From positions 30,001 to 62,000 of the forward strand of contig JAWCFL010000011.1 of assembly GCA_038858525.1 (NCBI GenBank): a stretch of DNA of 32,000 nt, read 5' to 3'. Shown piece after piece: positions 6,570 to 24,333 of the stretch. The position numbers and the translations under genes are program-made. Under the pieces are notes generated by a model, which ran no database searches, was not told the DNA's origin, and was given only the letters and a program-made list of their open reading frames with translations. Numbering within the stretch: position 1 is the stretch's first letter; every line of letters begins with the position of its first letter. Source of the DNA: Candidatus Jordarchaeales archaeon. GTDB lineage: Archaea > Asgardarchaeota > Jordiarchaeia > Jordiarchaeales > Freyrarchaeaceae.

Positions 6570-7052
6570 ATGAGAAAGGTGATGGTCTTCGGAACATTTG
6601 ATATACTACACGCTGGCCACTTAAAATTCCTAGAAGAAGCGAAGAAGCTTGGAGGCAAGGATGCGAAGCTTATTGCAGTAATAGCGAGAGATTCTACCGT
6701 GCAAAAAGTAAGAGGGCGCCCTCCAATATTCAGCGAAGAAGATAGAAGGAAATTGATAGAGGGACTAAAGCCGGTTGACGAAGCTATTCTAGGATATGAA
6801 GGCGGCGACATGCTTAAAATAGTTGAGGAGAAGAAGCCTGACGTTATAGTGCTCGGATATGACCAAAGAAAAGACATGGATCAATTCATTGATGAGTTAA
6901 GAAGTAGAGGGATCAATGCTGAAGTCTATCGGCTCCCGAAGTACGGAGAATTGAACAGCTCAAGTATAATAGTCAAAAAAATAGTTGAAATGGCTAATAA
7001 GTGGGGGATTAGTGGGAGAGAGTTAGAGAGGCGGGAGCGGAGCGGCCGCTAG
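6570..7052 (+). CDS. ribL: FAD synthase (cytidylyltransferase family)
   Basis: VMVFGTFDILHAGHL, IARDSTV, KPDVIVLGYDQ and SSSII; directly downstream of ribK. Confidence 0.88.
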   Translation: MRKVMVFGTFDILHAGHLKFLEEAKKLGGKDAKLIAVIARDSTVQKVRGRPPIFSEEDRRKLIEGLKPVDEAILGYEGGDMLKIVEEKKPDVIVLGYDQRKDMDQFIDELRSRGINAEVYRLPKYGELNSSSIIVKKIVEMANKWGISGRELERRERSGR

Positions 7053-7814
7053 GAGGCGAAGCGCCTCTATCTCTTTAAAGTGAAGAGACCCAGTAACGAT
7101 TAAGATGTGAGGAGGAGACCCAAAATCGTAGTATAAAAGGTTGCGAGGGTAATCTGCTTTAACGGTTGGGTTCTCGGACCCCGCTCGCGCCACGCCAACC
7201 ATTAGGGTCTTTTCCAGGAGGGGGGATTGAGAGGATAACTTATGCTCTAGTTCTAGCAATATTGCTACTCCTTCGTTGACCGTCATGAAACGTTTTTCCT
7301 CAGCTCGGACGTCAAGGAAAACCAAGGTGTGTAATCCGCGCTCTATGTTCTCTCGAACAACTAGATATGGCGTCTCGGGAAAGTAATTCTCTTCCGGGAA
7401 GGGTATTGTTACAGATCTGCCAAACTTATAGTTTTCCAATCCGCAAATGCTTGGGGCAGCTGAATAAATGGATACGCCATGAATAACACGCGTTTTCACT
7501 CCAAGCTTTTCAGCTTCCAGCCTGAGCGCGACATGCGTCGTAGCCACCATAGGGTCTCCTGGAACAAGAATCGCCACACGCTTATCTCTTGCGCGAGAAA
7601 GTATTTCTTCCACATTCTCCTCAACATCTTTTCTGGTGAGAGCGCGGACATTCTTACCGATCAAGGCTTCTAAGTTATCCTTTGTTAAGCCTCCCATAAC
7701 GCTTGTGTAAGCTTCAAAGTATACTTCATCTGCAGAACGGGCGGCATTTAGCCCCTTAAGAGTTATGTCATCGATACCCCACAAGCCTAAGCCAATGAAG
7801 ATGAGTTCCCCCAA
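7023..7814 (-). CDS. dph5: Diphthine synthase
   Basis: LIFIGLGL, EAYTS, LVPGDPMVATTH, HGVSIYSA, YKFGRSVT, GLHTLVFLD and FGSPPHILIVTGSLHFKE. Confidence 0.96.
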   Translation of the reverse strand: MGELIFIGLGLWGIDDITLKGLNAARSADEVYFEAYTSVMGGLTKDNLEALIGKNVRALTRKDVEENVEEILSRARDKRVAILVPGDPMVATTHVALRLEAEKLGVKTRVIHGVSIYSAAPSICGLENYKFGRSVTIPFPEENYFPETPYLVVRENIERGLHTLVFLDVRAEEKRFMTVNEGVAILLELEHKLSSQSPLLEKTLMVGVARAGSENPTVKADYPRNLLYYDFGSPPHILIVTGSLHFKEIEALRLLAAAPLPPL

Positions 7815-7829
7815 AAGAAAACCTCCAAC

Positions 7830-8900
7830 TTAAAGCTCGCGTTTTATTTCGTTCGGCTTGAAAATGCCTTTCTCGGTAACCATGAAGGTGACGTATTTTG
7901 AGGGAGTTAAGTCGAATGAAGGGTTCCTGGCATTAACGTTCGGGTGTATTTTAATGTGAGTGATTGTTCCTAACTCTGGATTGTATCCTTTCACGTGCGT
8001 GATTTCCTCTGATGAGCGCTCCTCAACTTTTACAGATGAACTCGAAGAGGCGAAAGTTGTAGTAGGCGCTGCGACTATGAACGGAACACCATTCTCATAC
8101 GCCGTAACCGCGAGCATGTACGTTCCTATTTTGTTTACCACGTCTCCGTTTGGAAGTATTCTGTCTGCTCCAACTAAGACAGCGTCAACCTCCCTTCTCT
8201 GGAGATAATATCCTGCAGCTGAGTCAACTATAAGGCAGTGGGGTATTCCTTCTTGGGTTAGCTCCCAACTAGTAAGCCTACCCTGTAGCCAAGGGCGAGT
8301 TTCCGTCGCGTAAACAAAGATGTTTTTTCCCTGAGCGTGGGCAAATCGAACTATGCTTAGCGCGGTTCCGTAGTCTACTGTTCCAAGCGCGCCTGGGTTG
8401 CAATGAACCATGACCTTAGCATTTTTAGGTATTAGGCTACTTCCCAGCTCGCCTATCCTTCTGCAAGCTTCAAGGTTCTCTTGGGCTATTTTTCTCGCCT
8501 CACAAAGGGCTGCTTGAGCGACTTCATCGGAGGAGTTTAAATCTTCGCACATTCCTAAGACGCGGGTAACCATGTTTTGCATGTCTACAGCTGTAGGCCT
8601 CGTGGAAAGAAGGTGGGCGGCAACCTTGCTAAGAAAAGCTTTCAGCTCCTTTGAAGGGAGATGACGATTTTGAAGAGCTGCTTGAGCTAGCCCATAACAT
8701 GCGGCTACCCCTATGGCTGGCGCTCCTCTAACCTTCATCATCCTTATGGCCTCGGCGACTTCCTCCACGTTCTTTGCCCTATAAATTGAAAACTCGAACG
8801 GGAGCTTTGTCTGATCGATCATGCAAACAACGTCCTCCTCCATCCATACGGTTTGGTACTCCCTTACCTCACTACCGATTCTGACTTTCATAGCAACCAT
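7830..8900 (-). CDS. mtnA: Methylthioribose-1-phosphate isomerase (eIF2B-like family)
   Basis: DQTKLP, VRGAPAIG, TRPTAVD, HCNPGAL, YGTALS, ETRPWLQG, VGADRI, NKIGTY and NPSFDLTP. Confidence 0.9.
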   Translation of the reverse strand: MVAMKVRIGSEVREYQTVWMEEDVVCMIDQTKLPFEFSIYRAKNVEEVAEAIRMMKVRGAPAIGVAACYGLAQAALQNRHLPSKELKAFLSKVAAHLLSTRPTAVDMQNMVTRVLGMCEDLNSSDEVAQAALCEARKIAQENLEACRRIGELGSSLIPKNAKVMVHCNPGALGTVDYGTALSIVRFAHAQGKNIFVYATETRPWLQGRLTSWELTQEGIPHCLIVDSAAGYYLQRREVDAVLVGADRILPNGDVVNKIGTYMLAVTAYENGVPFIVAAPTTTFASSSSSVKVEERSSEEITHVKGYNPELGTITHIKIHPNVNARNPSFDLTPSKYVTFMVTEKGIFKPNEIKREL

Positions 8901-8991
8901 CTCGCAGGGGGGACGTTTTAGCAGATACTAAAAAATCCACGCTCTAATTTTTAACTCTACGACCACCCCCTAAAATGAAAGGGTAGGGAAG

Positions 8992-9549
8992 TCACTTTTT
9001 ATATGCAGAAATTAAATCGATCTTTGTAATGATTCCTACTATTTCTCCCTTGTCCACAACTAGAACAGCGGGGTTCCCGCATATTATTAAGTGACGGACT
9101 ACGTCTATACTGGTAGACGGGTTCACTGTGGGAAAGCTTTCCTCCATAAGGTCTCCAACAGTTTTATCAAAAACGTCCTTCCCCTCCGAGAGACGCTTCA
9201 TTATGGTGCCCTCACTTAGGCTACCAACCAAGCGCCCTTCATCCACAACTGGTAGTTGCGATATGCCTTTTTTCTCCATGAGACTAATAGCCTTCCTAAC
9301 TGGTTCCTTAGTAGATACAGATATGACCGGGGAGAACATTATGTCCTTGGCGCAGATTTTACTCCTGTCAAACTCGCCCAGCGCGTTAATTATCTTTCTA
9401 AGCGTTGAGAGACGTGGGTCTACCGAGCCAGATTCGATCCTAGCGATTAACGACTGGCTTACGCCAGCCATCCGTGCCAGTTCCTCCTGCGTAATACCTA
9501 GGCGCTTCCTCGCTTGTTTAAGATCTTCTGGTGAAGGAAGGTAGAACAT
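8992..9549 (-). CDS. XRE-family HTH plus tandem CBS domain transcriptional regulator
   Basis: LKQARKRLGITQEELARMAGVSQSLIARIESGSVDPRLST, followed by two CBS repeats. ATG 9549 lies after GGTGA; the ORF-track extension to 9618 is probably untranslated. Confidence 0.92.
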   Translation of the reverse strand: MFYLPSPEDLKQARKRLGITQEELARMAGVSQSLIARIESGSVDPRLSTLRKIINALGEFDRSKICAKDIMFSPVISVSTKEPVRKAISLMEKKGISQLPVVDEGRLVGSLSEGTIMKRLSEGKDVFDKTVGDLMEESFPTVNPSTSIDVVRHLIICGNPAVLVVDKGEIVGIITKIDLISAYKK

Positions 9550-9728
9550 CAACATCACCTTAAAGAAGAGAAAAAAGGTCCTTCTTGAAGCATTATCACT
9601 TATAATTGAGGAAAACATTACTTTTAATTTTTCTACGGGTCTGTTTGTTTTCTAAACTAGAAGGAAATTTATAGGGGCAAGTGGGTCGTTAAATGTGGAT
9701 GACGCAAAGTTCCTAGAAGGGTTATGCT

Positions 9729-12044
9729 GTGAAGAAAAGATGCGAAATACTGTGCAGCGGAGTAGTTCAAGGAGTCGGCATGCGGCCTTTCGTGTACCGG
9801 ATAGCTGTCAAAAACAGCTTAACAGGCTACGTCCTCAACTTGGGGGATGCCGGAGTAAAAATAGTCGTTGAAGGAGAAGAGGAAGACATTAAAAGGTTTA
9901 TGATGGAGCTAAAGGAGAAAAAACCCCCACTGGCAAAGTTTGAGAAGATAAGGACGAAGTGGGGAAAGGCACGCGGAGAGTTCGATACGTTCACCATAGA
10001 GAAGAGTAGCAGTGACAGGATACTCGAAAGTTCCTACATACCTCCAGACGTGGCGATCTGCAATAACTGCATACAGGACATGTTGAACCCTAATGATAGG
10101 CATTACAAGTATGCGTTCACATGCTGCGCGGACTGCGGTCCAAGGTATACATCAATAATAGGTTTACCCTACGATAGAGAACTAACAACGATGCGAGACT
10201 TCCCTCTGTGCCCTCACTGCATGGAGGAATACATGAACCCTATGGATAGGAGATACCACGCTCAAGGAATATGCTGCCCTATCTGCGGCCCAAAACTCAC
10301 ACTCCACGCGAAAAACGGTGAGCTCATAGATTGCAACAACCCAATAGCGGAGGCAGCCAGATTAATAAATGAGGGGGCCATAGTGGCTGTGAAGGGTATA
10401 GGGGGAAGCCACCTAGCGGCGCTCACAACTGATGACGAATGCGTACTTAAACTAAGGCAGAGGAAAAGAGACAGGAAGTATAAGCCCTTCGCTGTCATGT
10501 CTCTGAGCCTCAACGAAGTAAGAAAGTATGCAGAAGTTAGTCAAAAAGAAGAGGAGGTTCTAACATCCTTCAGACGACCCATAGTGCTACTCAGGAAAAA
10601 AGAGGACTTTCCGCTTTCTAAGTGGATTAGCCCCGGACTACACAACATAGGTGTGATGCTGCCATACTCGGGACTGCACATACTCTTGCTGCAAGAGGTC
10701 ACAGACCCCGCTGTCATAATGACCAGCGGAAACGCGTCAGGAAAGCCCATAGCAGCAAGCAACGAGGAAATCATCACCCACCTTAGCGACTTAGCAGATT
10801 ACTTCTTGCTCCACAACAGAGTGATATACCAGAGGTGTGACGACTCTGTTGTCAAGATAGTAAATGGAAAAACCAAGCTGATACGCAGGTCAAGAGGCTA
10901 TGTGCCAGAACCAATAGAGACGCCGATACCGTACAGGGGAAAAGGAATACTGGCAGTCGGACCAGAACTAACAGTAACAGTAACCGTTATGAAGGGAAGT
11001 AGGTGCTATGCCAGTCAACACATAGGCGACGTCTCAGGCGACCTCGACATGATGGAGTTCCACGAAAGCGTCACGACACACCTGCTAAAACTTTTAAACG
11101 TAAATCCTGAAGCCTTGGCATGTGATCTGCACCCTCAATTCATGACGACCAAGATAGCAGAAGAATACGCTGAAAAATGGCAGGTCCCGCTGGTGAGGGT
11201 TCAGCACCATCATGCCCATGCGGCTGCACTAAAAGCGGAGCACAAATTGGATGAACCCATAGTCTGCATAGCGTGTGACGGCGTCGGCTACGGGCCAGAT
11301 GGAACTATATGGGGTGGAGAAGTGCTACTCTCAGACTATGAGTCGAGCGAGAGACTCGGGCACCTTGCCCCCCAACTTATGCCCGGAGGAGACCAAGCCA
11401 CTAAGTACCCAATAAGAATGGCGGCATCCATTCTCAGCCGTGTTTTGTCCGACAGTGAACTGAGGGATATTCTAACATCAAAATACATTGACGGGTTTAA
11501 ATACGGGGAAAAAGAGGTGGAAGTTGTCCTAAAGATGATAAGAGACGCTAAGGGGCCTCTCTCAACCAGTACAGGGCGCGTCTTAGACGCTATAGCAGCC
11601 CTGCTAGGAATATGCATGGAGAAAACATATCAAGGAGAGCCAGCGATGAGGCTTGAGGCAGCGGCGGCAAAAGGCAAACCAACCCTGAAAATAGAGCCCA
11701 AAATAAGTCGCTCAGACGGACGATACGTACTTGACACGTCCCAAATACTTTCTGAAGTGCTACAGGCGTTAGGAAAACATAGAGTAGAGGACTTAGCGGC
11801 ATCCGCCCAGCACGCTATAGCAATAGGATTAGCGGACATCGCCGTGAACGTGGCACAAGAGGAAAATGTGAGAACCGTTGGGTTTACAGGAGGCGTAGCA
11901 TACAACGAAGCCATAACAAAAACCATAAGAAAGCACGTCGAAAAAAACGGGCTAGTTTTTATACAGCACTCAGTTATACCTCCAGGCGACGCTGGAGTGA
12001 GCATAGGGCAAGCGATAGTGGCGGCGTGCAGATTATTAGGTTAG
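9729..12044 (+). CDS. hypF: Hydrogenase maturation carbamoyltransferase
   Basis: Acylphosphatase GVVQGVGMRPFVYR, Zn fingers (CNNC, CADCGPRY, CPHC, CPICGP), KGIGG, SQHIGD, CDLHP, QHHHAH, DGVGYG and PPGDAGVSIGQ. Confidence 0.97.
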   Translation: MKKRCEILCSGVVQGVGMRPFVYRIAVKNSLTGYVLNLGDAGVKIVVEGEEEDIKRFMMELKEKKPPLAKFEKIRTKWGKARGEFDTFTIEKSSSDRILESSYIPPDVAICNNCIQDMLNPNDRHYKYAFTCCADCGPRYTSIIGLPYDRELTTMRDFPLCPHCMEEYMNPMDRRYHAQGICCPICGPKLTLHAKNGELIDCNNPIAEAARLINEGAIVAVKGIGGSHLAALTTDDECVLKLRQRKRDRKYKPFAVMSLSLNEVRKYAEVSQKEEEVLTSFRRPIVLLRKKEDFPLSKWISPGLHNIGVMLPYSGLHILLLQEVTDPAVIMTSGNASGKPIAASNEEIITHLSDLADYFLLHNRVIYQRCDDSVVKIVNGKTKLIRRSRGYVPEPIETPIPYRGKGILAVGPELTVTVTVMKGSRCYASQHIGDVSGDLDMMEFHESVTTHLLKLLNVNPEALACDLHPQFMTTKIAEEYAEKWQVPLVRVQHHHAHAAALKAEHKLDEPIVCIACDGVGYGPDGTIWGGEVLLSDYESSERLGHLAPQLMPGGDQATKYPIRMAASILSRVLSDSELRDILTSKYIDGFKYGEKEVEVVLKMIRDAKGPLSTSTGRVLDAIAALLGICMEKTYQGEPAMRLEAAAAKGKPTLKIEPKISRSDGRYVLDTSQILSEVLQALGKHRVEDLAASAQHAIAIGLADIAVNVAQEENVRTVGFTGGVAYNEAITKTIRKHVEKNGLVFIQHSVIPPGDAGVSIGQAIVAACRLLG

Positions 12045-12550
12045 AAGTTGCCAGCAACCATAAACGGCTTAGCATACTCCTCAACCAACTGAATTAACTG
12101 CTCCTCTAGCTTTTTAAGATGGGGACTTGATTCCCCATAATCCAACCTCAACCTTTCGCGATAACTCGATATGAGGCTTGAAAGCTCAATGTAAGGCGCC
12201 AAGTTTGGAGTGTCCAGTAGCCCAACGTAACCTAGAAGGATTAACGTGTAAATTGACTTCACAACGTTCCTACAAGCCTGCTCGAGTACACGTCTAAAGG
12301 CGCCCTTTGTAACCCCGCGGGCAAGACGTGGCCTCCGCCCTCTCGCATTCCTAGAAGCTCTCAGGAGACCTTTGAGGGAATACTGAACTCCTCTTCCAGC
12401 GCTTTCATCTAGAAGAAAATGGATGACCAGCGTTTCAAACTGTATACGGGTGAGGTTAGACGAAGAGAGAAGGCGAGAAACAATAGAGTCGCCGAGGAGG
12501 CGACGCAGAAAATCCTCTAATTCGTTCAGTTCGACGTCTGCTCTGTCCAT
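12041..12550 (-). CDS. Uncharacterised helical protein with a possible HTH (169 aa)
   Basis: ATG lies 2 nt after the upstream stop, suggesting coupling. GVTKGAFRRVLEQA resembles an HTH recognition helix. From memory it resembles hypothetical proteins near cdc6 in TACK archaea (unverified). Confidence 0.75.
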   Translation of the reverse strand: MDRADVELNELEDFLRRLLGDSIVSRLLSSSNLTRIQFETLVIHFLLDESAGRGVQYSLKGLLRASRNARGRRPRLARGVTKGAFRRVLEQACRNVVKSIYTLILLGYVGLLDTPNLAPYIELSSLISSYRERLRLDYGESSPHLKKLEEQLIQLVEEYAKPFMVAGNF

Positions 12551-12552
12551 CT

Positions 12553-12984
12553 TCAGCCACCTTCACTTTTCAATTTGCCAAGCGTAGTGTACTGCTCCTC
12601 TAGGAGCTGGAATAATCCAAGTTCCTTCAGCTCTAACTCATCAAAAACTGTTTTCATCTTCTCCAGTATGGCAAGCCTGCAGAATACTGTTGCTCCACGC
12701 TCCCCAAACTTTTTCTTGAGCAGGGAGATGAAGCTACTAGGAAGCCTTACGTTGAAGTTTTGATCAAGCCGAGTCTTAGGGTCCTTCCTCACATAGACTA
12801 TTTTCTCCACTACCTGGACGGGTAGAGGCGACGTGACCTTCTCATCCACCAGAGATAATGAGGCCGCTGGCTGAGGATGAGCCACGGCACCTTCCTCATA
12901 GTTAAGAGGAGCAGGAGGCTGTGAGATTTGCCCATACTTTTCCTGCTCCTTGACTTTCTTCGCTATGTCAACCAGCCTCGTCAT
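12553..12984 (-). CDS. Uncharacterised protein with a C-terminal ribbon-helix-helix-like domain (143 aa)
   Basis: ATG after GGTGA. Basic N-terminal helix, Pro/Ala-rich linker, then a strand-helix-helix pattern: FNVRL / PSSFISLLKKKF / ATVFCRLAILEKM. Confidence 0.7.
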   Translation of the reverse strand: MTRLVDIAKKVKEQEKYGQISQPPAPLNYEEGAVAHPQPAASLSLVDEKVTSPLPVQVVEKIVYVRKDPKTRLDQNFNVRLPSSFISLLKKKFGERGATVFCRLAILEKMKTVFDELELKELGLFQLLEEQYTTLGKLKSEGG

Positions 12985-12996
12985 CTTATATCACCC

Positions 12997-13038
12997 GCAT
13001 CGATGCGCGACATCGATATCTGAAAGCGATATCAGACT
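12997..13038. promoter_or_regulatory. Palindrome-rich spacer, candidate operator or centromere-like site
   Basis: GCATCGATGC (12997-13006), CGACATCGATATC (13008-13020) and GATATC (13028-13033) lie in the 52-nt spacer between the ATPase and RHH genes. Confidence 0.55.
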
Positions 13039-14092
13039 ACTCTGGAACCTCCTCGATGCATGGTAAAGCATCCACAAGGGCTCCATCGATCACAGGGCTT
13101 CCTCCATCCTTGAACCTGTTAGCAGCAACGAACACTGCCTGGTTGCAAAGCATACGAAGGTCACGCCCCACACCCATAGACTTTCGTTTCAAAGCAGGAA
13201 CCGCATCCTCGGTGAAGGGGTGTATTTCAAAAGAGGACTCGTCAAACTCCTTAAGGCGGCCGCTAGCCCAATAAAGCCTCCTGCCGATAAATTCCCTGAC
13301 GCCGCGCTCATCCAATGGTTCAAGCTCGATCTCCCAACATCTATCATAGAGGTGAGGGACGCCTTCCTTGAGACCTATAGCATGAGTCTTCGTTCCAGTC
13401 AAAACGAGCATGCATATCATCTGATCCTCGTCGCCCTCCTCCGCAGCCCGCTTAATCGCATTAATCTCCCCCTCGTCAAGCTTCATTTTTTTAAGCTTAA
13501 GGAACCGCTTGAATTCATCTTCTTCTTCAACTACGAACCGCTTGGCGTCCTTCAGCGTTAAGTCGCCGACCTCCTTGATCTTAATAAAGACCTCAACGTC
13601 GTTCTCGCCGAAATCATCTATGAATATCAACGTAAGATATCCACTCAAAAGATATCGAAGCATGATATCATACTTGACCAGCACGTAAATGTCTTCAGCA
13701 TTGGCCGATCGAGAATATGGAACCCTAAGTTTCTTCGCCAAAACCTCAGCCATCTGCCTCACATACAGCTTACTCTGAGACACCATCACGGGATAGAAAC
13801 GATACTCAGGGTCACCCTGCCTAGAAAGCTCTAGAAGGTCCCCGTAAATCAGCTCGAGAAGCGTCGTTTTACCCATGCCGGGAAACTCGCTCGTTATCAG
13901 TATATGCCGCTCCCTAGCCTTAATGTAATCATCGATCTCAACTATTACATCATGAGGAGCCACGAACAGTTCAGGGTCGCTTAACCTCACACTCGAAAAC
14001 GGGTTCCACCTCCACCCGAAGAAGGAGTAGTATGCATTTCTAATCTCAGCCACCGAAGGGTAGAGACGCCCAACAGCACCCATACGCTCCAC
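13037..14092 (-). CDS. ExeA/TnsC-like (AAA_22-type) AAA+ ATPase, about 351 aa
   Basis: YYSFFGWRWNPFS leader, P-loop ITSEFPGMGKTT, Walker B IFIDD, MLVLTGT, candidate Arg finger LYDR and lid FTEDAVPALKRKSMGVGRDLRMLCNQA. GTG 14092 lies 6 nt after GGAGGT; ATG 14083 is an alternative. Confidence 0.8.
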   Translation of the reverse strand: MERMGAVGRLYPSVAEIRNAYYSFFGWRWNPFSSVRLSDPELFVAPHDVIVEIDDYIKARERHILITSEFPGMGKTTLLELIYGDLLELSRQGDPEYRFYPVMVSQSKLYVRQMAEVLAKKLRVPYSRSANAEDIYVLVKYDIMLRYLLSGYLTLIFIDDFGENDVEVFIKIKEVGDLTLKDAKRFVVEEEDEFKRFLKLKKMKLDEGEINAIKRAAEEGDEDQMICMLVLTGTKTHAIGLKEGVPHLYDRCWEIELEPLDERGVREFIGRRLYWASGRLKEFDESSFEIHPFTEDAVPALKRKSMGVGRDLRMLCNQAVFVAANRFKDGGSPVIDGALVDALPCIEEVPE

Positions 14093-14102
14093 ACAACCAC
14101 CT

Positions 14103-14150
14103 CCGACATCCGATATCGACAGCCGAAAAAGATACCAGAATCCAGATATC
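14103..14150. promoter_or_regulatory. GA(T/C)ATC cluster just upstream of the ATPase RBS
   Basis: CGACATC-CGATATCG (14104-14118) and AGATATC (14144-14150). Confidence 0.5.
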
Positions 14151-14444
14151 AAAACCAGAAAACGATACGCAAAATCTAAAGAGAAAAAACATCGTAATAC
14201 GTAGAGAACACCAACAGAATACGAGAAATACGCGGGAAGGCCAGCTGCGATTGAAAAGGAACACGAGCTCAAGAAACACTAAGAGAGCTAAACGAGAACC
14301 AAGAGCGACGTAGGTTTACAAAAAAGTATACCCACAGGGAGCCTAAAGCAGAAGAGAACATCAAACGAAAAGGATAAATACCAGAAATATGGAGGGAATA
14401 CCTCCATAAATAAGAAAGACGAAGAGCACAACAGTATTAGTTAC

Positions 14445-14464
14445 TTTGGAACATGTGTTCCAAA
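14445..14464. repeat. 20-bp palindrome, copy 1
   Basis: TTTGGAACA-TG-TGTTCCAAA. Confidence 0.85.
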
Positions 14465-14466
14465 AA

Positions 14467-14820
14467 TCACGACTTTTTGCTCTCCTTAAGCGCAGCATAA
14501 GAAGTAAGGAGGTCCACCCAAGATTTGAGAAAACCCTTGGCGAACCCCGCCCTCTCAGGAAGGTTTGAGGAGAAAACTTGCGCCAGAGAATCCAGATACT
14601 TCGCGTATCTCCTAGCGTCTTCTGCTGAGAGACCATTCATTAGTGAAACTATTAGGGAAATCTGGTTAAGTTTTTCAAGACCTGCAAGCCAACCTCGCCA
14701 GGCCAGCTCAACCCATTTATCTTTAAACCGTGATTCCTCCAAAGCTGCTTTAGCGATTTCAATGGCCTTCTTGTGATCGCCTTCAGCCAATGCTTTAACG
14801 AATTCTTCAACTTCACTCAA
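14467..14820 (-). CDS. Uncharacterised small helical protein (about 117 aa), origin-adjacent
   Basis: TTG 14820 after GGTGG (ORF track starts at GTG 14829). Amphipathic helices with WRGWLAGL and KGFLKSWVDLL. Confidence 0.75.
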   Translation of the reverse strand: MSEVEEFVKALAEGDHKKAIEIAKAALEESRFKDKWVELAWRGWLAGLEKLNQISLIVSLMNGLSAEDARRYAKYLDSLAQVFSSNLPERAGFAKGFLKSWVDLLTSYAALKESKKS

Positions 14821-14975
14821 AACAACCACCCTGCTTAATTAAATATATAAAAAGACGACTAATTAAGATTTCCAGCAAAATGACGATTTCAGCAATCGAA
14901 AATGGATGTCGTAATCAGATATCGATACTTGAATTGCATTTTTTATTTTTGTTCAGTGCATGAAGTGCGACAAGC

Positions 14976-14996
14976 ACCCCTTCGTTTCTACTGTAA
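14976..14996 (-). promoter_or_regulatory. Origin recognition box ORB-1
   Basis: Minus strand reads TTACAGTAGAAACGAAGGGGT, matching the archaeal ORB consensus TTCCAGTGGAAACnAAGGGGT. Confidence 0.88.
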
Positions 14997-15131
14997 CAGG
15001 TAAACTTATAAATCACTAAGCTAAACTTGAGCTTTTTATACAAAAAACTTATATCTTCTAAGTCCCAAGTATTTTGGGGGAGAGTTTTAATTTTAAAAGT
15101 TTAATTAATAAACTTAAGAGAGTTTTACTTT
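14997..15131. other. AT-rich candidate DNA unwinding element of oriC
   Basis: 135-bp AT-rich non-coding segment between oppositely oriented ORB-1 and ORB-2. Confidence 0.7.
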
Positions 15132-15152
15132 TTCCAGTTGAAACAGTGGGGT
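15132..15152 (+). promoter_or_regulatory. Origin recognition box ORB-2
   Basis: TTCCAGTTGAAACAGTGGGGT. Confidence 0.88.
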
Positions 15153-15173
15153 GGGTGGGTTTCCTTCTTTTAT

Positions 15174-15193
15174 TTTGGAACACATGTTCTAAA
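15174..15193. repeat. 20-bp palindrome, copy 2 (inverted relative to copy 1)
   Basis: TTTGGAACA-CA-TGTTCTAAA; 19/20 identical to the reverse complement of 14445-14464. Confidence 0.85.
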
Positions 15194-15476
15194 TGTTTTC
15201 TTCCTCTACAACTACAAAAACTCGGCACTTAACAATATCCTTGTATTTCTTGAAGAAAGCATTGAAGACTTCTGCGTGTTCATCTTGAACTAGTATTGCG
15301 CTATCTCCTGCCCTGTCGCAACCATAGAAGTCCACAAGGCCTAATTTTTGCCCCTTTAATGTTTTTCCTTCCTTGTTTTTCCATTTGTAGGCGTATCCGA
15401 AGAGTTCCTTGAAGAATTTCACCCTGCGCGGGTTACTCGAATGTTCCGCCTTTACGTCGTAGACGTATATTCTCAA
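15189..15476 (-). CDS. Small protein with a Cas2/VapD-like sequence pattern (95 aa)
   Basis: TTG 6 nt after GGAGGG. IYVYDV...RRVKFFKELFGY and SAILV resemble the Cas2/VapD ferredoxin-like fold. The fold is inferred. Confidence 0.6.
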   Translation of the reverse strand: MRIYVYDVKAEHSSNPRRVKFFKELFGYAYKWKNKEGKTLKGQKLGLVDFYGCDRAGDSAILVQDEHAEVFNAFFKKYKDIVKCRVFVVVEEENI

Positions 15477-15553
15477 AGTTTTCCCTCCATCAATACGTTG
15501 CAGCCATTCGTCTTTGAAGACTTGTATTTTCGTTGTCTTTTTGTGGTCAATAG

Positions 15554-15921
15554 CTTAACATGTTAACACAGTGTTAACATAGCCGTTTTGAGTTGTTAAC
15601 ACGTTGTTTTTGCTATGAATAATGCAAATTATCTTAGTTAAAAATTGACCCCTTTATTTCAACTGCAACATTTTTTTCGATATTTTTCTCTTTCCTTTTC
15701 GTGTTAACACGGTTTGTTAACCTTTATTTAGAAAAAACAATGGAAAATTGTTTTTTTGAAGATTTACCGCTTTTTATTTCAATTTTTCTTGTTAATACTT
15801 TTTAAAAATTCTCTTTGTCAAAAGATGGCGTATTTTTTCCTTTTTTTGTTCTTTTCGTGTTCGTCACGTTAACAAATTTACACATTATTTCTCTTTGTTT
15901 TTAACGCGTTGTTTTGTTAAC
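15554..15921. repeat. Cluster of seven GTTAAC palindromes
   Basis: GTTAAC at 15562, 15573, 15595, 15703, 15716, 15868 and 15916, including ATGTTAACAC-A-GTGTTAACAT (15560-15580). Confidence 0.85.
15648..15668 (-). promoter_or_regulatory. Origin recognition box ORB-3
   Basis: Minus strand reads TTGCAGTTGAAATAAAGGGGT. Confidence 0.85.
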
Positions 15922-16255
15922 GTATTGCGTGTTTTAGGTGAACCATTTCCCCCTTTAGAAAATAACGTTTTTTTGCTGGCTTCAAAGTTTTTATGGACTC
16001 TTCTTTTAGCTTATCGTAGAAAGCGGCATATGTTCTGTTTTTCAGAGGGATTGAGCTGCGGGTTAATGTTCAAGTGTAAAGTGTTTGGTGTTGGCTCCTG
16101 AAAGCCCCTGAGGTTGTATTTTTGTGGGTGGAATGCATTAGTCTTGCAGTTTGATTATTCTGCTTTTTATGTGTTGCTGGTTGGAGTTGTTAAGGGTGTT
16201 TTTCGGGTGTAATAGATAGACATATATATTTACGCGTGTAAGTTTAACTTACCTC

Positions 16256-16269
16256 GTTTCCAGTGGAAG
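16256..16269 (+). promoter_or_regulatory. Mini-ORB overlapping the RBS of the winged-helix gene
   Basis: GTTTCCAGTGGAAG, the ORB core without the G-string. Confidence 0.75.
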
Positions 16270-16278
16270 GTGTGCTGG

Positions 16279-16749
16279 TTGGGGGCGAAGCGCTACAAGA
16301 TCGAGATAGTTGATGCCGAGCGCAACGTGAAGGCTACTTTGACTATTGAGGGTGATGTTTCCCCCCAGCTGGCGGCATCTCTTGTGGAGGAGCTTTCCGA
16401 GAAACTGTCTGAGGGCGGAGTGGCGGAGGAGGCACCTGCTGGGTTTGAGGCTTCCGAGGTTGACGCCGAGCTCCCCGACACTGAAAGTCTCTCGATGAAG
16501 GATAAAATTGAACTTGTACTGCTAAAGTATTTCCAGTATGGGTGGTTTACTTCTGGTGATGTTCATGAGCAGTTTACTCGGGTTTTTGGTGAGACCTCTC
16601 TAAGCGTGGTTTCAACATACTTGGCGAGGCTGCGTAGTGAGGGGCTCTTGGAGCGTAAGGGAACGAAAAAGCAGTATTATTACCGGCTTAAGGAAAGTGG
16701 CCGGCTCAGGGCTTCTAGGCTTAGCGAGCTTCTTCAGCTTCTTCCGTGA
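16279..16749 (+). CDS. Winged-helix protein with a small N-terminal beta domain, upstream of cdc6
   Basis: C-terminal wHTH pattern WFTSGDVHEQF...SLSVVSTYLARLRSEGLLERKG...YYYRL, with an acidic linker. TTG 16279 lies after AAGGTG. Confidence 0.8.
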   Translation: MGAKRYKIEIVDAERNVKATLTIEGDVSPQLAASLVEELSEKLSEGGVAEEAPAGFEASEVDAELPDTESLSMKDKIELVLLKYFQYGWFTSGDVHEQFTRVFGETSLSVVSTYLARLRSEGLLERKGTKKQYYYRLKESGRLRASRLSELLQLLP

Positions 16750-16770
16750 AGTTGCTTCTCGACCGAGTGT

Positions 16771-16841
16771 GTTTCCAGTGTAATATTAATGGATATATTT
16801 GCCGGAAGTTAAGCATTATTCACCTTTGTTTCCAGTGGAAG
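16771..16841 (+). promoter_or_regulatory. Two mini-ORBs in the cdc6 upstream region
   Basis: GTTTCCAGTG (16771-16780) and GTTTCCAGTGGAAG (16828-16841). Confidence 0.75.
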
Positions 16842-16861
16842 TAGGAAAAGTGGTGGTTTGT

Positions 16862-18109
16862 TTGGGTGAACGTTCTCTTGAGGCGCTTTTTGAAAGGTTT
16901 CTCTCAACCAAGATCTTCAAGAATCGTGACGTGTTGAGTCATACTTATGTTCCTGACGAGTTACCTCACCGTGACGAGCAAATAGAGAAGGTTGGGTTAA
17001 TTCTCGCCTCAGCTCTTAAGGGCGGCACTCCTTCGAACGTTTTCATTTATGGAAAGACGGGTACAGGTAAGACTGCTGTCGTACGCTTCGTTCTTAAGCA
17101 CCTTGTTGCTAAGTGTCACGAGCTGAATGTGCCTGCTCCCTTACCCGCTTACCTTAACTGTAGAATTGTAAACACTAATTATCGTGTTCTGGCTCGGCTT
17201 TGCTCCTACTTAGGTGTCGAGGTTCCCTTTACGGGTCTGCCTACCGATGAGGTTTACAGTAGGTTTAGGGACGTGCTTGATAGCAGGGACGTGTTGATGA
17301 TAATCGTGCTCGACGAGGTTGAACGGTTAGTTGAGCGGGACGGTAGTAACGTCCTCTACGACCTAACTAGGATGAATCACACTGTTCTTAAGCGGGCGCG
17401 CGTCAGCATAATAGGCATCACGAATGACTTAACGTTCAAGGATAACCTTGATCCTAGAGTGCTGAGTAGCTTAGGGGAAGAAGAGCTAGTTTTCCCGCCT
17501 TACACTGCCGCTGAGCTCAGGGACATTCTTTGGCAGAGGGCTCAGCTTGCCTTCAGAGAGGGCGCTCTTGAAGGTCCAGGAGTCATCAATCTTTGCGCAG
17601 CTATAGCCGCTAAGGAGCACGGGGACGCCCGTCGCGCCCTAGACTTGCTTAGAGTCGCTGGCGAGATAGCTGAGCGGGAGGGCGCAGAAAAGGTTTCCGA
17701 AGAGCATGTGAGAGCCGCTCAACACGTCATCGAGCGAGATCACCTGGTTGAGGCACTGAGAACTCTCCCTATGCATTCTAAGCTTGTACTTTACACTATT
17801 TTTGAGTTGACTAAGCAGGGAAGGGGTAAAGCTAGGACCGGGGACATATACAACTACTACTTGAACGTTTGCAGGCGTCTACATGTTGAGCCGTTAACTC
17901 AGAGGCGGGTTAGTAGCCTTATAAATGAGCTTGACATGCTGGGTGTCGTTGCGGCTCATCTTAAAAGCAGAGGACGCCATGGGCTCTCGAAAGAAGTGAA
18001 ACTCAACGTTTCAGTAAATCAAGTCAAACAAGTCTTAGAGGAGGATTCATTCATAAAGAAGCTTTCATCCAGTGACTCGTCTCCTCTCTTTGAGGCTAGT
18101 CCCCAGTAA
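16862..18109 (+). CDS. cdc6: Orc1/Cdc6 replication initiator
   Basis: YVPDELPHRDEQI, YGKTGTGKT, LDEV, IGITND, LDPRVLSSL, FPPYTAAEL, HGDARRALDLLR and a C-terminal wHTH (SRGRHG). TTG 16862 after GGTGG preferred over 16799. Confidence 0.97.
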   Translation: MGERSLEALFERFLSTKIFKNRDVLSHTYVPDELPHRDEQIEKVGLILASALKGGTPSNVFIYGKTGTGKTAVVRFVLKHLVAKCHELNVPAPLPAYLNCRIVNTNYRVLARLCSYLGVEVPFTGLPTDEVYSRFRDVLDSRDVLMIIVLDEVERLVERDGSNVLYDLTRMNHTVLKRARVSIIGITNDLTFKDNLDPRVLSSLGEEELVFPPYTAAELRDILWQRAQLAFREGALEGPGVINLCAAIAAKEHGDARRALDLLRVAGEIAEREGAEKVSEEHVRAAQHVIERDHLVEALRTLPMHSKLVLYTIFELTKQGRGKARTGDIYNYYLNVCRRLHVEPLTQRRVSSLINELDMLGVVAAHLKSRGRHGLSKEVKLNVSVNQVKQVLEEDSFIKKLSSSDSSPLFEASPQ

Positions 18110-19610
18110 AGTCCAGCTGAGCCACCCAGAAGTCCTTCAAATTAACGATGTACGGTTTTCCGGGTGTTGGTGTTAAGCCCATGGCTTTCTGATAATCTGT
18201 TTGGTCCTGAAATGTCCCTGAGTTTATCACGGTCACACCGCGATAATTTTCTTGCCCATTCACGTGAAGGTGGCCACAATGAAAAATATCTGGGACCTTC
18301 TCGATAACTAAGAGGTCCATTGGTTCAGGGGACAATGGCGTTGAACCATAGACTGGCGCTAAATGTCTTCCTCTAAGAAGCTCTATCATTGCTTTTTCCG
18401 GGTAGTGTGAGTCTATTGATAGAGCTGTCATCACGTCATTCAGCGGGTCTCCATGAAAGCATAACACCTCAACGCCGTGTATTCTAAAGTATGCTGGGTC
18501 TCCAAGCATTTCGACTCCTATTTCGTAAAGTGGTTCACTGTAATCTTTAGGTATGGCTGGCTGGGGTAATGCTTGCCTAGTTGCATCGTGCCCGCCCGGT
18601 ATAGCTATAGTCTTAACGTAGTCTGGTACGTTTTCAAGATGCCTCGCTGCTATTTCGTATTGCGCGTAGAGTTCCTCGACGACGAGCTCCTTCTCTTGAT
18701 TCGGGTAGACTCCGACTCCATCCACTATGTCTCCTCCAATTACCAAGTATTTAACTTGTTTTGCCAAGCTTCTGCTTTTCTCGTCCCCTCTTTTGCCCTG
18801 AAGCCATTCTAGGAACCTTGTAAATGGTTTCTCCATGAATTTCTTGCTGCCGAAATGCGTGTCTGAAATGAAGACCGCCATTATGGGTTCATCAGCCCTC
18901 CTAGGTTTGTGATCGAATGGTATGTCGGGCCAAATGATGTTATCAGCCACAACGAACGCTCCATTACTCCTACCTTCCACGCAGACTACTTGGTCCAGCA
19001 TAAGGTGTCGCGCCTTGTCTGTTAAGTTGCTCGGGATTAGAACGCTGACCACACCGTCAAGATCCTCAAGTTCTATGACCATGGAGCCACTTCGAGCCCT
19101 CGAAATTTCCCTGACTAATCCTATTAACTTGACTTCCTCGGCTCTGCCTACTTCACATGTCCTACATATCCCTTTTATGTCCCCCCTTTTCAGAAAGAGG
19201 TTGCTGAGACGCATATATCTATCCTTGAAGTAATTAACAAAGTCGTCTAGGGACCCACTGGTTCCTATCATCTTTGTTGGATCCATCACCACTTCAAAAT
19301 CTTCATCTACTTCCCTAGCGGTTAGGGCCGGCTTAGGCTTCAAGCCTGGAGGAATTATACTTTGTGCTTCCTCGCTTTTAGGAGCTTTTACATTAGTTGC
19401 TTCTCGGGGCTCCTCTTTTTCAATTAGCTTCCTAATATCTTCCTCTGTTAGGACAAGTGTTCCCTCTGTGGCCTTAACCTTACTTATGACTAAGGAAGCT
19501 AAGCTAGGCTCAAGTGCCAATATGACGTCTAGCGCTCTGGGAGTAACTTGCAGTCCGGCTTCAAGCAACTCCTTAACTGTTCTCTTTGCAACCTGCGATG
19601 TCCCTATCAA
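18096..19610 (-). CDS. polB: DNA polymerase D small subunit DP1
   Basis: YFKDRY, OB fold (ELEDLDG, DQVVCVEG), SDTHFGSK, GDIVDGVGVYPNQ, PGGHD, RQALPQP, RHLAPVYG, HCGHLH, NSGTFQDQT and TPTPGK. Confidence 0.96.
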   Translation of the reverse strand: MIGTSQVAKRTVKELLEAGLQVTPRALDVILALEPSLASLVISKVKATEGTLVLTEEDIRKLIEKEEPREATNVKAPKSEEAQSIIPPGLKPKPALTAREVDEDFEVVMDPTKMIGTSGSLDDFVNYFKDRYMRLSNLFLKRGDIKGICRTCEVGRAEEVKLIGLVREISRARSGSMVIELEDLDGVVSVLIPSNLTDKARHLMLDQVVCVEGRSNGAFVVADNIIWPDIPFDHKPRRADEPIMAVFISDTHFGSKKFMEKPFTRFLEWLQGKRGDEKSRSLAKQVKYLVIGGDIVDGVGVYPNQEKELVVEELYAQYEIAARHLENVPDYVKTIAIPGGHDATRQALPQPAIPKDYSEPLYEIGVEMLGDPAYFRIHGVEVLCFHGDPLNDVMTALSIDSHYPEKAMIELLRGRHLAPVYGSTPLSPEPMDLLVIEKVPDIFHCGHLHVNGQENYRGVTVINSGTFQDQTDYQKAMGLTPTPGKPYIVNLKDFWVAQLDFTGD

Positions 19611-20082
19611 AGTTTCCGCCCTGCTTATCTCTTAAACCAAAACACACTATAAATTTTTGTGTGATCCGTCTCTTAACTAAAGTAGAAGTTCACCCTGAGT
19701 TTCCGCGTTTTTGTTTTTACCTTTCACTTAAAAGAATAACCATTTATTAATACTTCAAGTTGCGTCGCCTCTTACAAATGACAAGTAGCTTAAAGATTCC
19801 TCATTGTAAGCTCTTTAGCCTAAGACCTAAGACGCATTTGCTCGCTCTTTTTCGAAAAAGCAAATCACTAAACTCTCTCCCAACTTCTTCATTTGCAAAG
19901 GTTCTCCAACCAATGAGAGGGTTTTGCACATTTTCGTTCTCTTATGACTAATTTTACACATGAATATGCTTCGTTTAAATGAGACGGAATTTATTAAATT
20001 GAGTCCATAAAAAATATATAGTATTTGTAATTACGTGTTTTTGAATTGAAATCGTTAAAGATCATAGTGGGAGGTTTATTAC

Positions 20083-21063
20083 GTGTCTAAGATGGAAATT
20101 AGGAAGCTTCAGAAAACTGGAGGTAGCACCTTCCTCTTAAGCCTTCCTAAGGGTTGGATTAAGCGTATGGGTCTTAAACAAGGAGACCTTGTAGCATTAA
20201 TAGAAAGAGGGGACGGTGCCCTCCTTGTCGATCCTCGCTACTCTGAAAAGGAAAAAGTCAAAATGGCTATTATAGAAATTGACGCTAGCCCGAATTTTAC
20301 AAGAGAAATAACCGCAAACTTCCTTTATGGTTATGACGTTATACGGATCCGCTCGAAGAATGGCATCACGTCCGAGCAGAGAGATGCCATTAAGCGCTCG
20401 CTTCAACAACTTGTTGGCGTAGAAATAGTTGAGGAAAGCGCTAAGGAGATCACTCTCCAATGCTTACTTTCACCCTCAGCTCTTTCCCTAAAGAGAACGA
20501 TAAAGAGAACTTACCTCATAGCTGCTAGAATGCAGGAGGACGCTGTGACCGCTATAAAGGACAAGGACCTTAACTTGGCAGAAAGTGTTGTGGTGAGAGA
20601 CGAGGACATTGATAGGCTTTACTTTTTAATGGTCAGGCAGCTTCGCTCAGCGATAATGGAACCCTACTTAGCGGAGAAAATCGGCATCAGCCCCATAGAA
20701 TGCTTAGATTACCGTGTCGCAATCAAAAGCATAGAGTCCATGGCAGACTACTCCGTCAAGATAGCCGAGCAAGTCCACCTCATACTTGACGCTAAGATCC
20801 CGGAGAACGTTATTGAAAGCATCCTGAAAATAAATCGCATAGCTCATGAAATGCACTCTAACGCCATAGAAGCTCTCGTAAGGAAGGACGGAGTTTTAGC
20901 GTCAAAAACCATCGCGATGAAGCCTCAACGTAACCAAGCCGTAGAGGAAGCTTACAAGGCCCTTGCAAACGAATCAGTAGAAATATCTATTCCTCTCAGC
21001 ACTGTAGTTGACATGCTAGACCGTATATCTGAATGCGGCGTTGACATAGCTGACCTAGCATAA
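20083..21063 (+). CDS. phoU: Archaeal phosphate-uptake regulator (AbrB/MazE-like N-terminus plus PhoU domains)
   Basis: RKLQKTGGSTFLLSLPKGW, RDEDIDRLYFLMVRQL, IESMADYSVKIA and LDRISECGVDIADL. Confidence 0.88.
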   Translation: MSKMEIRKLQKTGGSTFLLSLPKGWIKRMGLKQGDLVALIERGDGALLVDPRYSEKEKVKMAIIEIDASPNFTREITANFLYGYDVIRIRSKNGITSEQRDAIKRSLQQLVGVEIVEESAKEITLQCLLSPSALSLKRTIKRTYLIAARMQEDAVTAIKDKDLNLAESVVVRDEDIDRLYFLMVRQLRSAIMEPYLAEKIGISPIECLDYRVAIKSIESMADYSVKIAEQVHLILDAKIPENVIESILKINRIAHEMHSNAIEALVRKDGVLASKTIAMKPQRNQAVEEAYKALANESVEISIPLSTVVDMLDRISECGVDIADLA

Positions 21064-21114
21064 GCTCAAAAAGACCATTAACTATTATGTTTTGAGCATA
21101 AGGAGGGATGTCTC

Positions 21115-21978
21115 ATGAAGTCGATAGATGAAATGGCTCGTGAAATACAGTCTCGCTTCAAAATCGTTGGTAGGCTAGAGGAGCTAAAGAAGGCACTAGC
21201 CGCTAAACTAGCGTCCCGCCACCTTCTAATAGAAGGGGAAGTGGGTGTTGGAAAGACGACACTGGCGGACGCAATAGCGAGATACTTTAACCAGCCAATG
21301 TTCCGAGTTGACGGCGATGAACGTTACACGGAGGCTAAATTAACAGGGTGGTTTGATCCTCCAGCAGTAATGAAGTACGGCTACACGAAGGACGCTTTTG
21401 TTCCGGGGCCCCTTACTCTCGCCATGCTTGAAGGCGGCATTCTATTCGTAAACGAAATAAACCGTTTAAGTGAGTCTACGCAGAATGTTTTCCTTCCTGT
21501 TATGGATGAAGGCAAATTGGGGATCCCGAAGATAGGCGAGATCACAGCGAAGGACGGATTCTTCATCATAGCCACGCAGAACCCTCTTGAGCATGTTGGT
21601 GTAACCGCTTTAGGTGAAGCATTAAGAGACCGTTTCTGCTGGATACGAATCGACTACCAGAGTGAAGAAGAAGAAAGAGAAATAGTGGCACTCAAATCCG
21701 GCTGCTCCAACCCTGATATAATACGGTTGGCAGTAAAAATAGTGAGAGCAACCCGCACACATGAGGATCTGCGGAGGGGGGCGTCAGTTAGAGGCGCTAT
21801 CGACATTGCGCGTCTCCTATCTCACTACAACGGCACCCAGGTGACTTCGAAGGACTTGTGGGTTCAAGTTGCAGTAATGGCTCTTGGCACACGTGTCGAA
21901 CTCGAGGACGGTGTCGGCAAGACGGTTGAAGAAGTCATAAGGGAAATTGTAGACGAATGCTTTGAGGATTTTCGGTAA
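21115..21978 (+). CDS. MoxR/CoxD-like AAA+ ATPase
   Basis: LLIEGEVGVGKTT, LTGWFDP, GPLTLAM, FVNEINR, IATQNP, ALRDRF and GASVRGAID. Confidence 0.92.
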   Translation: MKSIDEMAREIQSRFKIVGRLEELKKALAAKLASRHLLIEGEVGVGKTTLADAIARYFNQPMFRVDGDERYTEAKLTGWFDPPAVMKYGYTKDAFVPGPLTLAMLEGGILFVNEINRLSESTQNVFLPVMDEGKLGIPKIGEITAKDGFFIIATQNPLEHVGVTALGEALRDRFCWIRIDYQSEEEEREIVALKSGCSNPDIIRLAVKIVRATRTHEDLRRGASVRGAIDIARLLSHYNGTQVTSKDLWVQVAVMALGTRVELEDGVGKTVEEVIREIVDECFEDFR

Positions 21979-22136
21979 GAGAGGAGGCCCAGCCCTCCGA
22001 TGAGACTAAACGCATAAATCCCTTCTCGGCTTTCGACCTCCTCCTAGAGGAAATCTCCCTGGGCTCAGCACCTCCTTACGTTTACACAGACCTCGCAAGA
22101 AACCTTGACTATGCCTCCATAAAAAGAGCCGCCGAA

Positions 22137-23048: not shown

Positions 23049-23066
23049 ACGCTGGCTGCCTCCCTT

Positions 23067-23960: not shown

Positions 23961-24129
23961 CCGTCACCCCTCTCTTTTTCCAGTATTTCCCAATGTACCA
24001 TAAAAAATTTTTGATAAATGACACATATAAGATAACGTTTTGATCAATAAAACAAATTATCTTTTAGAATTTATAAAGATAAGTCCCCCGACACTCTATT
24101 AAAAACAAACTGAGAACGAAACTATAAAA

Positions 24130-24283
24130 TGGTGCGGGGGGTGGGATTTGTTCCCGCAGCAACGGATTGAACCCACGAACGCCTACGCCCACCTGGACTG
24201 CGCGACAGGATTCTGAGTCCTGCCCCTATAGCCGCTTAAACTTTGACTTAGCCTGCAGGCGCATCTGGCTTGGGTACCCCCGC
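24130..24283 (-). tRNA. tRNA-Leu(CAG) with four putative non-canonical introns; CCA encoded
   Basis: Acceptor GCGGGGG/CCCCCGC-A-CCA, anticodon arm CAGGA-CTCAGAA-TCCTG and T arm GTGGG/CCCAC. Removing 24248-24264, 24228-24242, about 24189-24203 and 24148-24166 gives a canonical 88-nt class II tRNA. A T-run follows on the minus strand. Confidence 0.9.
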
Positions 24284-24333
24284 ATCTACCGCCAATCACC
24301 TTCATTATGGCTTCCTCAAAAATTTTTTGATTT

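Follow-up and report, generated by a model that had tools for sequence, protein, structure and literature searches.

What is the role of an ATPase gene and the small gene directly behind it that lie beside the replication origin of an Asgard archaeon, Candidatus Jordarchaeales archaeon (Jordarchaeum below)? The two genes are found in a 32,000-nt stretch of contig JAWCFL010000011.1 (positions 30,001 to 62,000, forward strand), which is part of the 2.09-Mb assembly GCA_038858525.1. This whole stretch is called the window, and all coordinates are positions within it. The original prediction described an operon of three co-oriented genes next to the origin, encoding an ExeA/TnsC-like AAA+ ATPase, a 143-amino-acid (aa) protein with a ribbon-helix-helix (RHH)-like C-terminus and a 169-aa helix-turn-helix (HTH)-like protein, and read it as a partition-like module or an origin-remodelling machine. 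The three genes are located on the minus strand where it placed them, with origin recognition box (ORB) sequences ~1 kb from the first two and the initiator gene orc1 2.7 kb from the ATPase gene:

13037..14092, minus strand: AAA+ ATPase, 351 aa, divergent ExeA/AAA_22-type, initiator clade
12553..12984, minus strand: p143, small tailed partner, 143 aa
12041..12550, minus strand: p169, conserved archaeal orphan, 169 aa

The ATPase and p143, together with arrays of the palindrome GATATC, may work as a single module on DNA near the origin, organising, positioning or segregating it, a reading to which we give even chances. The third gene does not appear to belong to it.

The ATPase has the motifs of its superfamily. 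In an alignment of relatives from four lineages, Walker A is GMGKT (G72-T76), in which G72, G74 and K75 are invariant or nearly so, Walker B is the acidic pair D159-D160, and sensor 1 is G233-T234. Walker B, sensor 1, a candidate Arg finger (R251) and R310 and R313 of the sensor-2 region are also invariant or nearly so. The sensor-2 region (G307-R310-R313) follows the pattern G-x-x-R-x-x-R-x-L, and the N-terminus carries the signature Y..FFGW..NPF, whose F-G-x...P-F we take to be a mark of ExeA-like proteins. GTG at 14092 is preferred over TTG at 14272 as the start codon because GGAGGTG stands immediately 5' of it and database homologues are 351-356 aa long. The AlphaFold2 (AF2) model, with a predicted local distance difference test score (pLDDT) of 89, covers the AAA+ base and lid. 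The best Foldseek matches of this model in PDB are archaeal Orc/Cdc6, Drosophila ORC/Cdc6 and TnsC filaments. Among Swiss-Prot models ExeA/GspA (P45754, residues 2-258) comes first (E 9e-13, template modelling score 0.62), followed by Orc1-type proteins. The chain stops after the lid at 351 aa and has no winged helix. Unlike the neighbouring true orc1, which has both, it gives no match to Cdc6_C or the lid family. In Jordarchaeia and Freyarchaeia, the alignment and the AF2 model show that Walker B is followed by a three-helix insertion of ~35 residues.

Pfam, NCBIfam, PADLOC, and PHROGs give nothing significant for the ATPase, p143 or p169, and a PDB sequence search with family profiles gives nothing for the ATPase, the Thorarchaeota partner or p169. 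The best library matches of the ATPase, below significance, are NB-ARC (E 0.003) and AAA_22 (E 0.16). Against Pfam AAA_22 it scores 12.7 bits and fails the cut-off of 27, while a Thor-like relative reaches 26.4 bits. A profile search of 1.8 billion representatives (E<=0.001) returned 2781 relatives, of which merely 7 clusters fall below 1e-30. The ATPase is a divergent member of the AAA_22 group: it stays below the cut-off, and 39 of its 40 next-nearest relatives have this domain (E<=0.001). With its motifs, its fold matches (ExeA, Orc1/Cdc6, and TnsC) and these AAA_22-bearing relatives, the enzyme is as predicted. Its motifs show it to be catalytically intact; it belongs to the ExeA/Orc/TnsC clade of AAA+ proteins and lacks a DNA-reading domain. 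ExeA/GspA, the best structural match, shares with it the N-terminal F-G-x...P-F and the sensor-2 pattern G-x-P/G-R-x-x-x-L-C. However, the ATPase lacks the transmembrane and peptidoglycan-binding C-terminal part of ExeA, and neither an ExeB partner nor type II secretion system genes are found in the window or in the 79 related loci described next.

These 79 loci are on contigs taken from one genome per species and represent Jordarchaeia, Freyarchaeota, ~70 species of Thorarchaeota, and a few others. In all 79 a small gene lies directly 3' of the ATPase gene. The pair is found also in three further families, which bear the anonymous labels f20, f26, and f27, and in an Odin-like 1.4-Mb genome. 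While the two genes are 47-121 nt apart in Jordarchaeia and Freyarchaeia, the distance in Thorarchaeota is mostly -29 to +3 nt (-68 at one locus), and this overlap or abutment suggests translational coupling. Across 301 sampled Asgard genomes, the ATPase family has no more than one copy per genome and is present in seven families (4/4, 5/6, 4/4, 69/76, 3/3, 1/1, and 8/11 genomes). The pair keeps one syntenic position across classes, despite protein identities of 25-30%. Its linkage to the origin, part of the original description, likewise holds as synteny across classes. In Thorarchaeota, however, the distance to origin-marker genes is ~11-14 kb, and no orc1 is found within 30 kb of the pair. 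No transposase, integrase or secretion gene is found from ~7000 to 25700 of the window, and the 79 loci contain no secretion or mobile-element genes. This supports the original description, which had noted no transposase or secretion gene nearby. The ATPase and small partner are the conserved unit, not the triad, and on this distribution the pair is single-copy, apparently vertically inherited, and old. No description of it was found in the literature searched.

The third gene behaves differently. In Jordarchaeum only 2 nt separate the stop of p143 from the ATG of p169, and p169 is convergent with hypF, which it overlaps by 4 nt. p169 is present in every family that has the ATPase, never more than a few kb away and usually adjoining hypF. 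It is co-oriented and coupled with the pair in Jordarchaeaceae only. In Freyarchaeia it has the opposite orientation to the pair, and in Thorarchaeota the distance between them is ~4 kb. Families in which no ATPase was found have p169 as well (13/19, 3/3, and 1/1 genomes), again near orc1. Because its orientation varies and it occurs where the ATPase was not found, p169 is best regarded as a separate origin-linked orphan and not as a core part. The three-gene operon as a conserved unit is ruled out by the same inversion, distance, and occurrence without the ATPase. The HTH assignment likewise lacks library support: p169 and 16 homologues have no Pfam, NCBIfam or PDB-sequence match to any HTH, and its sole support is a language-model Atlas lead (0.77) to a cluster with 14% Sigma70_r4. 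By eye, the invariant stretches LT..Q.ET and G..RGAF.R.L.QA..N look like sigma-70 region 4. Even in genomes in which the ATPase pair was not found, Atabeyarchaeia-like ones among them, members of the p169 family keep to the vicinity of hypF or orc1, no more than a few kb away (loci L130 and L134).

In all partner families the small partner is built of the same three parts: a short, highly conserved basic motif at the N-terminus, a low-complexity linker of variable sequence, and a small conserved domain at the C-terminus. In p143 these are a conserved motif at residues 1-16, a variable low-complexity linker at ~17-55, and a conserved domain at 56-140. Jordarchaeum has MTRLVDIAKKVKEQE as its N-terminal motif. 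The Thorarchaeota motif is MSLLGKYRKE, with an invariant K6 and nearly invariant Y7 and R8. The C-terminal domain of p143 has the pattern beta, helix, G-x-x-T, helix, with N76, N78, and R80 invariant on the strand. This pattern (NFNVRLP, helix, GERGAT, helix) fits RHH, in which case N76, N78, and R80 would face the DNA. For comparison, 16 RHH_1 domains were drawn from the genomes under study. The p143 domain aligns with them by hhalign in register over 47 columns, with a weak score of 16.1 that is equalled by 2 of 150 column shuffles. The Thorarchaeota partner domain aligns with them end to end (score 23.1), which none of 150 shuffles reaches. The f27 partner, 33% identical to that of Thorarchaeota, passes Pfam RHH_1 at 21.5 bits (cut-off 20.5). 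Between p143 and the Thorarchaeota partner hhalign detects no similarity, either at full length or with the domain only. In the language-model Atlas the p143 domain is nearest to clusters of CB_ParB_C, MetJ, RHH_5, McdB, RHH_1, and RHH_3 (0.85-0.87), which serves as a lead only. Taken together, the C-terminal domain of p143 is probably an RHH. Of the earlier description of this protein, the N-terminal motif, the linker, and the small domain stand, while the RHH fold is shown for the f27 counterpart and is weakly supported for p143. Prediction of a complex between the ATPase and p143 scored 0.20 (mark 0.32); it gives no verdict and is not used either way.

If the partner binds DNA, candidate sites are close at hand. 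The palindromic repeats reported in front of the first two genes are real, and they contain GATATC. The sites around the pair are as follows, none of them assigned to a strand:

12985..13036: site array from the ATPase stop to the p143 start, with GATATC-N7-GATATC, a palindrome, and GGGTGAT
13636..13669: three intragenic GATATC in the ATPase gene, putative sites spaced 15 and 13 nt
14104..14150: site array 5' of the ATPase start, with GATATC at 14145 and 14112 and GGTATC between them
14905..14932: outlying site GATATCGATAC 5' of a 120-aa gene, an inverted match to 13012-13033

Eight of the 11 GATATC copies in the window lie within 13015-14923: two in the ATPase-p143 gap, two 5' of the ATPase gene, three intragenic, and one 5' of the 120-aa gene. 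The genome has 277 copies in 2.09 Mb, and this locus is its densest 2-kb stretch with eight, the next densest having three (Poisson P ~3e-10 per stretch, from the genome total). In the first array, GATATC-N7-GATATC (13015-13033) gives a 13-bp spacing and is joined by the palindrome ATCGATG-N5-CATCGAT (12999-13017). The Shine-Dalgarno-like GGGTGAT stands 5 nt before the p143 ATG. In the array 5' of the ATPase gene, a GATGTC adjoins the Shine-Dalgarno sequence. When five Jordarchaeales genomes are aligned, xTATC units are kept in both intergenic arrays, at spacings of 6-7, 13, and 20 bp. At least two of the three intragenic copies derive from Asp-Ile codons (EDIY and YDIM). The three are conserved in a congener; the ATPase gene of Freyarchaeia retains the same dipeptides, yet has no GATATC.

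The tandem form GATATC-N7-GATATC is found genome-wide at this locus only: two of two copies in Jordarchaeum (G000), one of one in the congener (G002), and six of six in Freyarchaeum (G006). In the complete 3.58-Mb chromosome of Freyarchaeum, CP147778, these six span 11.5 kb around the origin and the pair. The single site is enriched there as well, with 888 copies chromosome-wide (0.25 per kb) versus 29 in 12 kb at this locus. The copies occupy nearly every intergenic gap, to either side of the origin as well as next to orc1. They lie where the 3' ends of orc1 and the PolD small-subunit gene converge, in the gap upstream of orc1, in the origin, in a stretch free of open reading frames (ORFs), and in the ATPase-p143 gap (five). 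Sites at convergent 3' ends are more than a simple operator role would require. The ORF-free stretch, between the 95-aa origin gene and the ATPase gene (L015:7747-10029), is 2.3 kb without an ORF of >=70 aa and has 10 GATATC and no Rfam match. The 120-aa gene of Jordarchaeum has no match in it.

In Thorarchaeota the sites are of another type. In 55 of 68 loci the start of the ATPase gene is directly preceded by GTATTAC-N11-GTGATAC, and at least two 7-mers of the GTATTAC type are found there in 62 of 68. One complete Thorarchaeota chromosome, CP070658, has four copies of RTAWTAC-N2-RTAWTAC, none of them outside a 4.6-kb range around the pair. Related units are upstream of the pair in f20, f26, and f27. 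The total of GTATTAC-type 7-mers in Thorarchaeota loci was dropped as a measure of an array, since several of them are coding sequence for conserved peptides. The argument for Thorarchaeota rests, for that reason, on the promoter operator and the tandem units counted genome-wide. Beyond the operator, ~100-150 nt 5' of the ATPase gene, many Thorarchaeota loci (L029-L098) have a conserved TTCAAAAAGGTTGTGTC box.

The short palindromic sites are lineage-specific, and around the pair and the origin they cluster as nowhere else in the genome. Partners with the Thor-type RHH go with GTATTAC-type units, and the unrelated-looking p143 domain goes with GATATC. The best available argument that the partner reads the sites is that the motif switches together with the partner's DNA-binding domain.

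The origin itself lies upstream of the ATPase gene, past the 120-aa gene and a 95-aa gene. It is an AT-rich stretch with ORB cores, beyond which a winged-helix-like gene, orc1, and the PolD small subunit gene follow in this order:

15132..16841, no strand assigned: replication origin, ORB cores and AT-rich stretch
16799..18109, plus strand: orc1/cdc6 initiator gene (Cdc6_C 7e-30, Cdc6_lid 3e-28)
18096-19610: PolD small subunit gene

ORB cores GTTTCCAGTGGAAG are at 16256, 16771, and 16828, an inverted pair of TTCCAGTTGAAAC is at 15132/15648, and GC goes down to 0.33 across 15001-16000. Boxes of the TGTTAACA type are repeated in the AT-rich core (15554-15923). A 21-nt palindrome, TTTGGAACATGTGTTCCAAAA, is found at 14445-14465 and 15173-15193; the two copies are mutually inverted, are 95% complementary, and sit at the stops of the minus-strand 120-aa and 95-aa genes, flanking the left part of the origin region. 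The remaining neighbours in the window are housekeeping genes. At 21115-23048 lies a MoxR-VWA pair of the usual kind, in which the gene of a MoxR-like AAA_5 ATPase precedes one with a VWA domain. Except for one tRNA, Rfam finds no RNA family in the window or at the Freyarchaeum locus.

How might the pair and its sites work together? Dimers of p143 would read GATATC through the N-x-N-x-R strand, and the 13-bp phasing would load several of them side by side. Sites just 5' of start codons would at the same time provide autoregulation. The conserved N-terminal motif of p143, on its flexible tether, could recruit or stimulate the ATPase, which with ATP would assemble on adjacent DNA like TnsC, MuB or Orc. 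The outcome would be a nucleoprotein domain through which the origin region is organised, positioned or segregated, by a partition-like logic in which an AAA+ motor replaces ParA.

Such logic has known parallels. Type Ib partition systems (ParF-ParG of TP228 and delta-omega of pSM19035) have the same gene order, NTPase followed by a small centromere-binding protein. Their binder is built alike, with a flexible tail at the N-terminus and a small DNA-binding domain of the dimeric type, though here the likeness is one of architecture only. They also have the same iterated short sites next to the operon, locus-private and overlapping promoters or operators, which here are candidate binding sites. 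The motor differs: it is a deviant-Walker-A ParA there and an ExeA/Orc-clade AAA+ here. The present module is, moreover, chromosomal, origin-linked, and vertically inherited in Asgard archaea. Another parallel is SegAB, largely limited to Sulfolobales, which is likewise an archaeal chromosomal two-gene cassette with binder sites adjoining its own operon. SegA is of the ParA type, however, the segS motif and the SegB fold are unlike those of the module here, and no sequence similarity was found. The SegB-type binder is site-specific, has an N-terminal motor-interacting region, and has sites next to its own operon (PMC8682754, PMC12139799). Of the layout originally likened to type Ib and SegAB, then, the tailed small binder behind the motor and the iterated sites are borne out, but the motor is AAA+ and not of the ParA/MinD type. 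A bolder proposal, which we consider doubtful, is that the module represents one more class of machine for partitioning or organising chromosomes, and that this class is ancestral to several classes of Asgard archaea. In such a machine an ExeA/Orc-clade AAA+ would replace the ParA, actin-like or tubulin-like motor, and a tailed RHH-type adaptor would couple it to a centromere-like palindrome array around the origin.

Several observations weigh against a DNA-organising module. p143 is unrecognised by RHH sequence models, with no Pfam match, and a genome scan with PF01402 misses it. Its AF2 monomer is poor (pLDDT 53), with a strand at 74-82 followed by helices that are unbroken at G94-T99. We infer p143 to be the GATATC reader from proximity and co-variation only. 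The Jordarchaeum sites lie mostly just 5' of start codons, where plain autorepression suffices, and some Thorarchaeota units are intragenic and code for conserved peptides (GRNIGIISNTGG and the CxxC motif of HypF). In the largest of the sampled Asgard families no such ATPase was found (0/68, 0/29, and 0/21 genomes), so the module is not a universal Asgard function. In addition, hypF, a CBS-HTH gene, and the PolD small subunit gene belong to the same conserved origin neighbourhood. Because housekeeping genes share that synteny, the origin linkage may be historical, and synteny alone proves little.

The alternative that survives best, although we think it unlikely, is a purely transcriptional module. 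Here p143 would be a small repressor like aCcr1 or CdrS, with autoregulation of the operon and a small origin-proximal regulon, and the ATPase would be a regulatory partner or sensor and not a DNA-handling motor. This would suit the Jordarchaeum sites, which are <= ~55 nt 5' of the start codons of the ATPase and p143, and the Thorarchaeota operator, which in 55-62 of 68 loci directly precedes the start of the ATPase gene. aCcr1 and CdrS are themselves small proteins of the RHH type, and their boxes, short palindromes, stand between TATA and the start codon. In Sulfolobales the aCcr1-box, A(T/G)G(A)TA(G)A(T/G)TACN, is located between TATA and the start codon, and aCcr1 represses cdvA (bioRxiv 10.1101/2022.07.07.499082). 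The 9-bp unit of Thorarchaeota resembles this box, whereas the motif in Jordarchaeia and Freyarchaeia is GATATC. aCcr1-type regulators are, however, ~58 aa long and stand-alone, without a tail, a coupled ATPase or a private site cluster. A regulon would also leave unexplained the Freyarchaeum sites in convergent 3'-3' gaps and in the 2.3-kb ORF-free stretch, and the tandem sites are limited to one chromosomal neighbourhood, not scattered over promoters.

Less likely still is an accessory of replication initiation, in which an Orc-like paralogue without a winged helix would be brought by the small protein to origin-flanking sites and would aid or restrain Orc1/MCM loading or origin melting. Orc1/Cdc6 is among the best fold matches of the ATPase and has the AAA+ base/lid fold and the origin position in common with it. 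The pair is 1 kb from ORB boxes, and in Freyarchaeum the sites flank the origin on both sides and lie beside orc1. Orc1/Cdc6 proteins, however, have a C-terminal winged helix that the ATPase lacks, a separate true orc1 is already 2.7 kb away, and by sequence the ATPase groups with ExeA/AAA_22 and not with Orc. The distance of ~11-14 kb from origin markers in Thorarchaeota, with no orc1 found within 30 kb, also speaks against this accessory role, and most of the sampled Asgard families replicate without the pair.

A domesticated mobile-element remnant, or a defence or toxin-antitoxin pair made of a TniB/TnsC/MuB-like ATPase and an RHH antitoxin-like partner, is very improbable and was rejected: TnsC filaments are among the fold matches, TnsC/TniB/MuB share the AAA+ clade and fold and polymerise on DNA steered by a small partner or partner peptide, RHH proteins are common as antitoxins, and there is a weak PADLOC match to mad8 (E 0.006), but the pair is single-copy and immobile, its synteny is fixed across classes whose proteins are 25-30% identical, its surroundings have no transposase, integrase, TniQ or nuclease, and PADLOC and PHROGs give no significant match.

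Asgard archaea are the closest prokaryotic relatives of eukaryotes. To our knowledge, the organisation of their chromosomes and their mode of segregation are unknown. The DNA-organising module proposed here offers a concrete handle on both, as it consists of two small proteins, a 6-bp site, and mapped arrays. If it is true that the tailed adaptor controls assembly of the ATPase on DNA, the ExeA/TnsC/Orc clade would gain a chromosome-handling role, and partition-like logic would be seen to have been built on another motor. If the module is a regulator only, it would still define a conserved origin-proximal regulon and provide a clean case of a DNA-binding domain and its site changing together.

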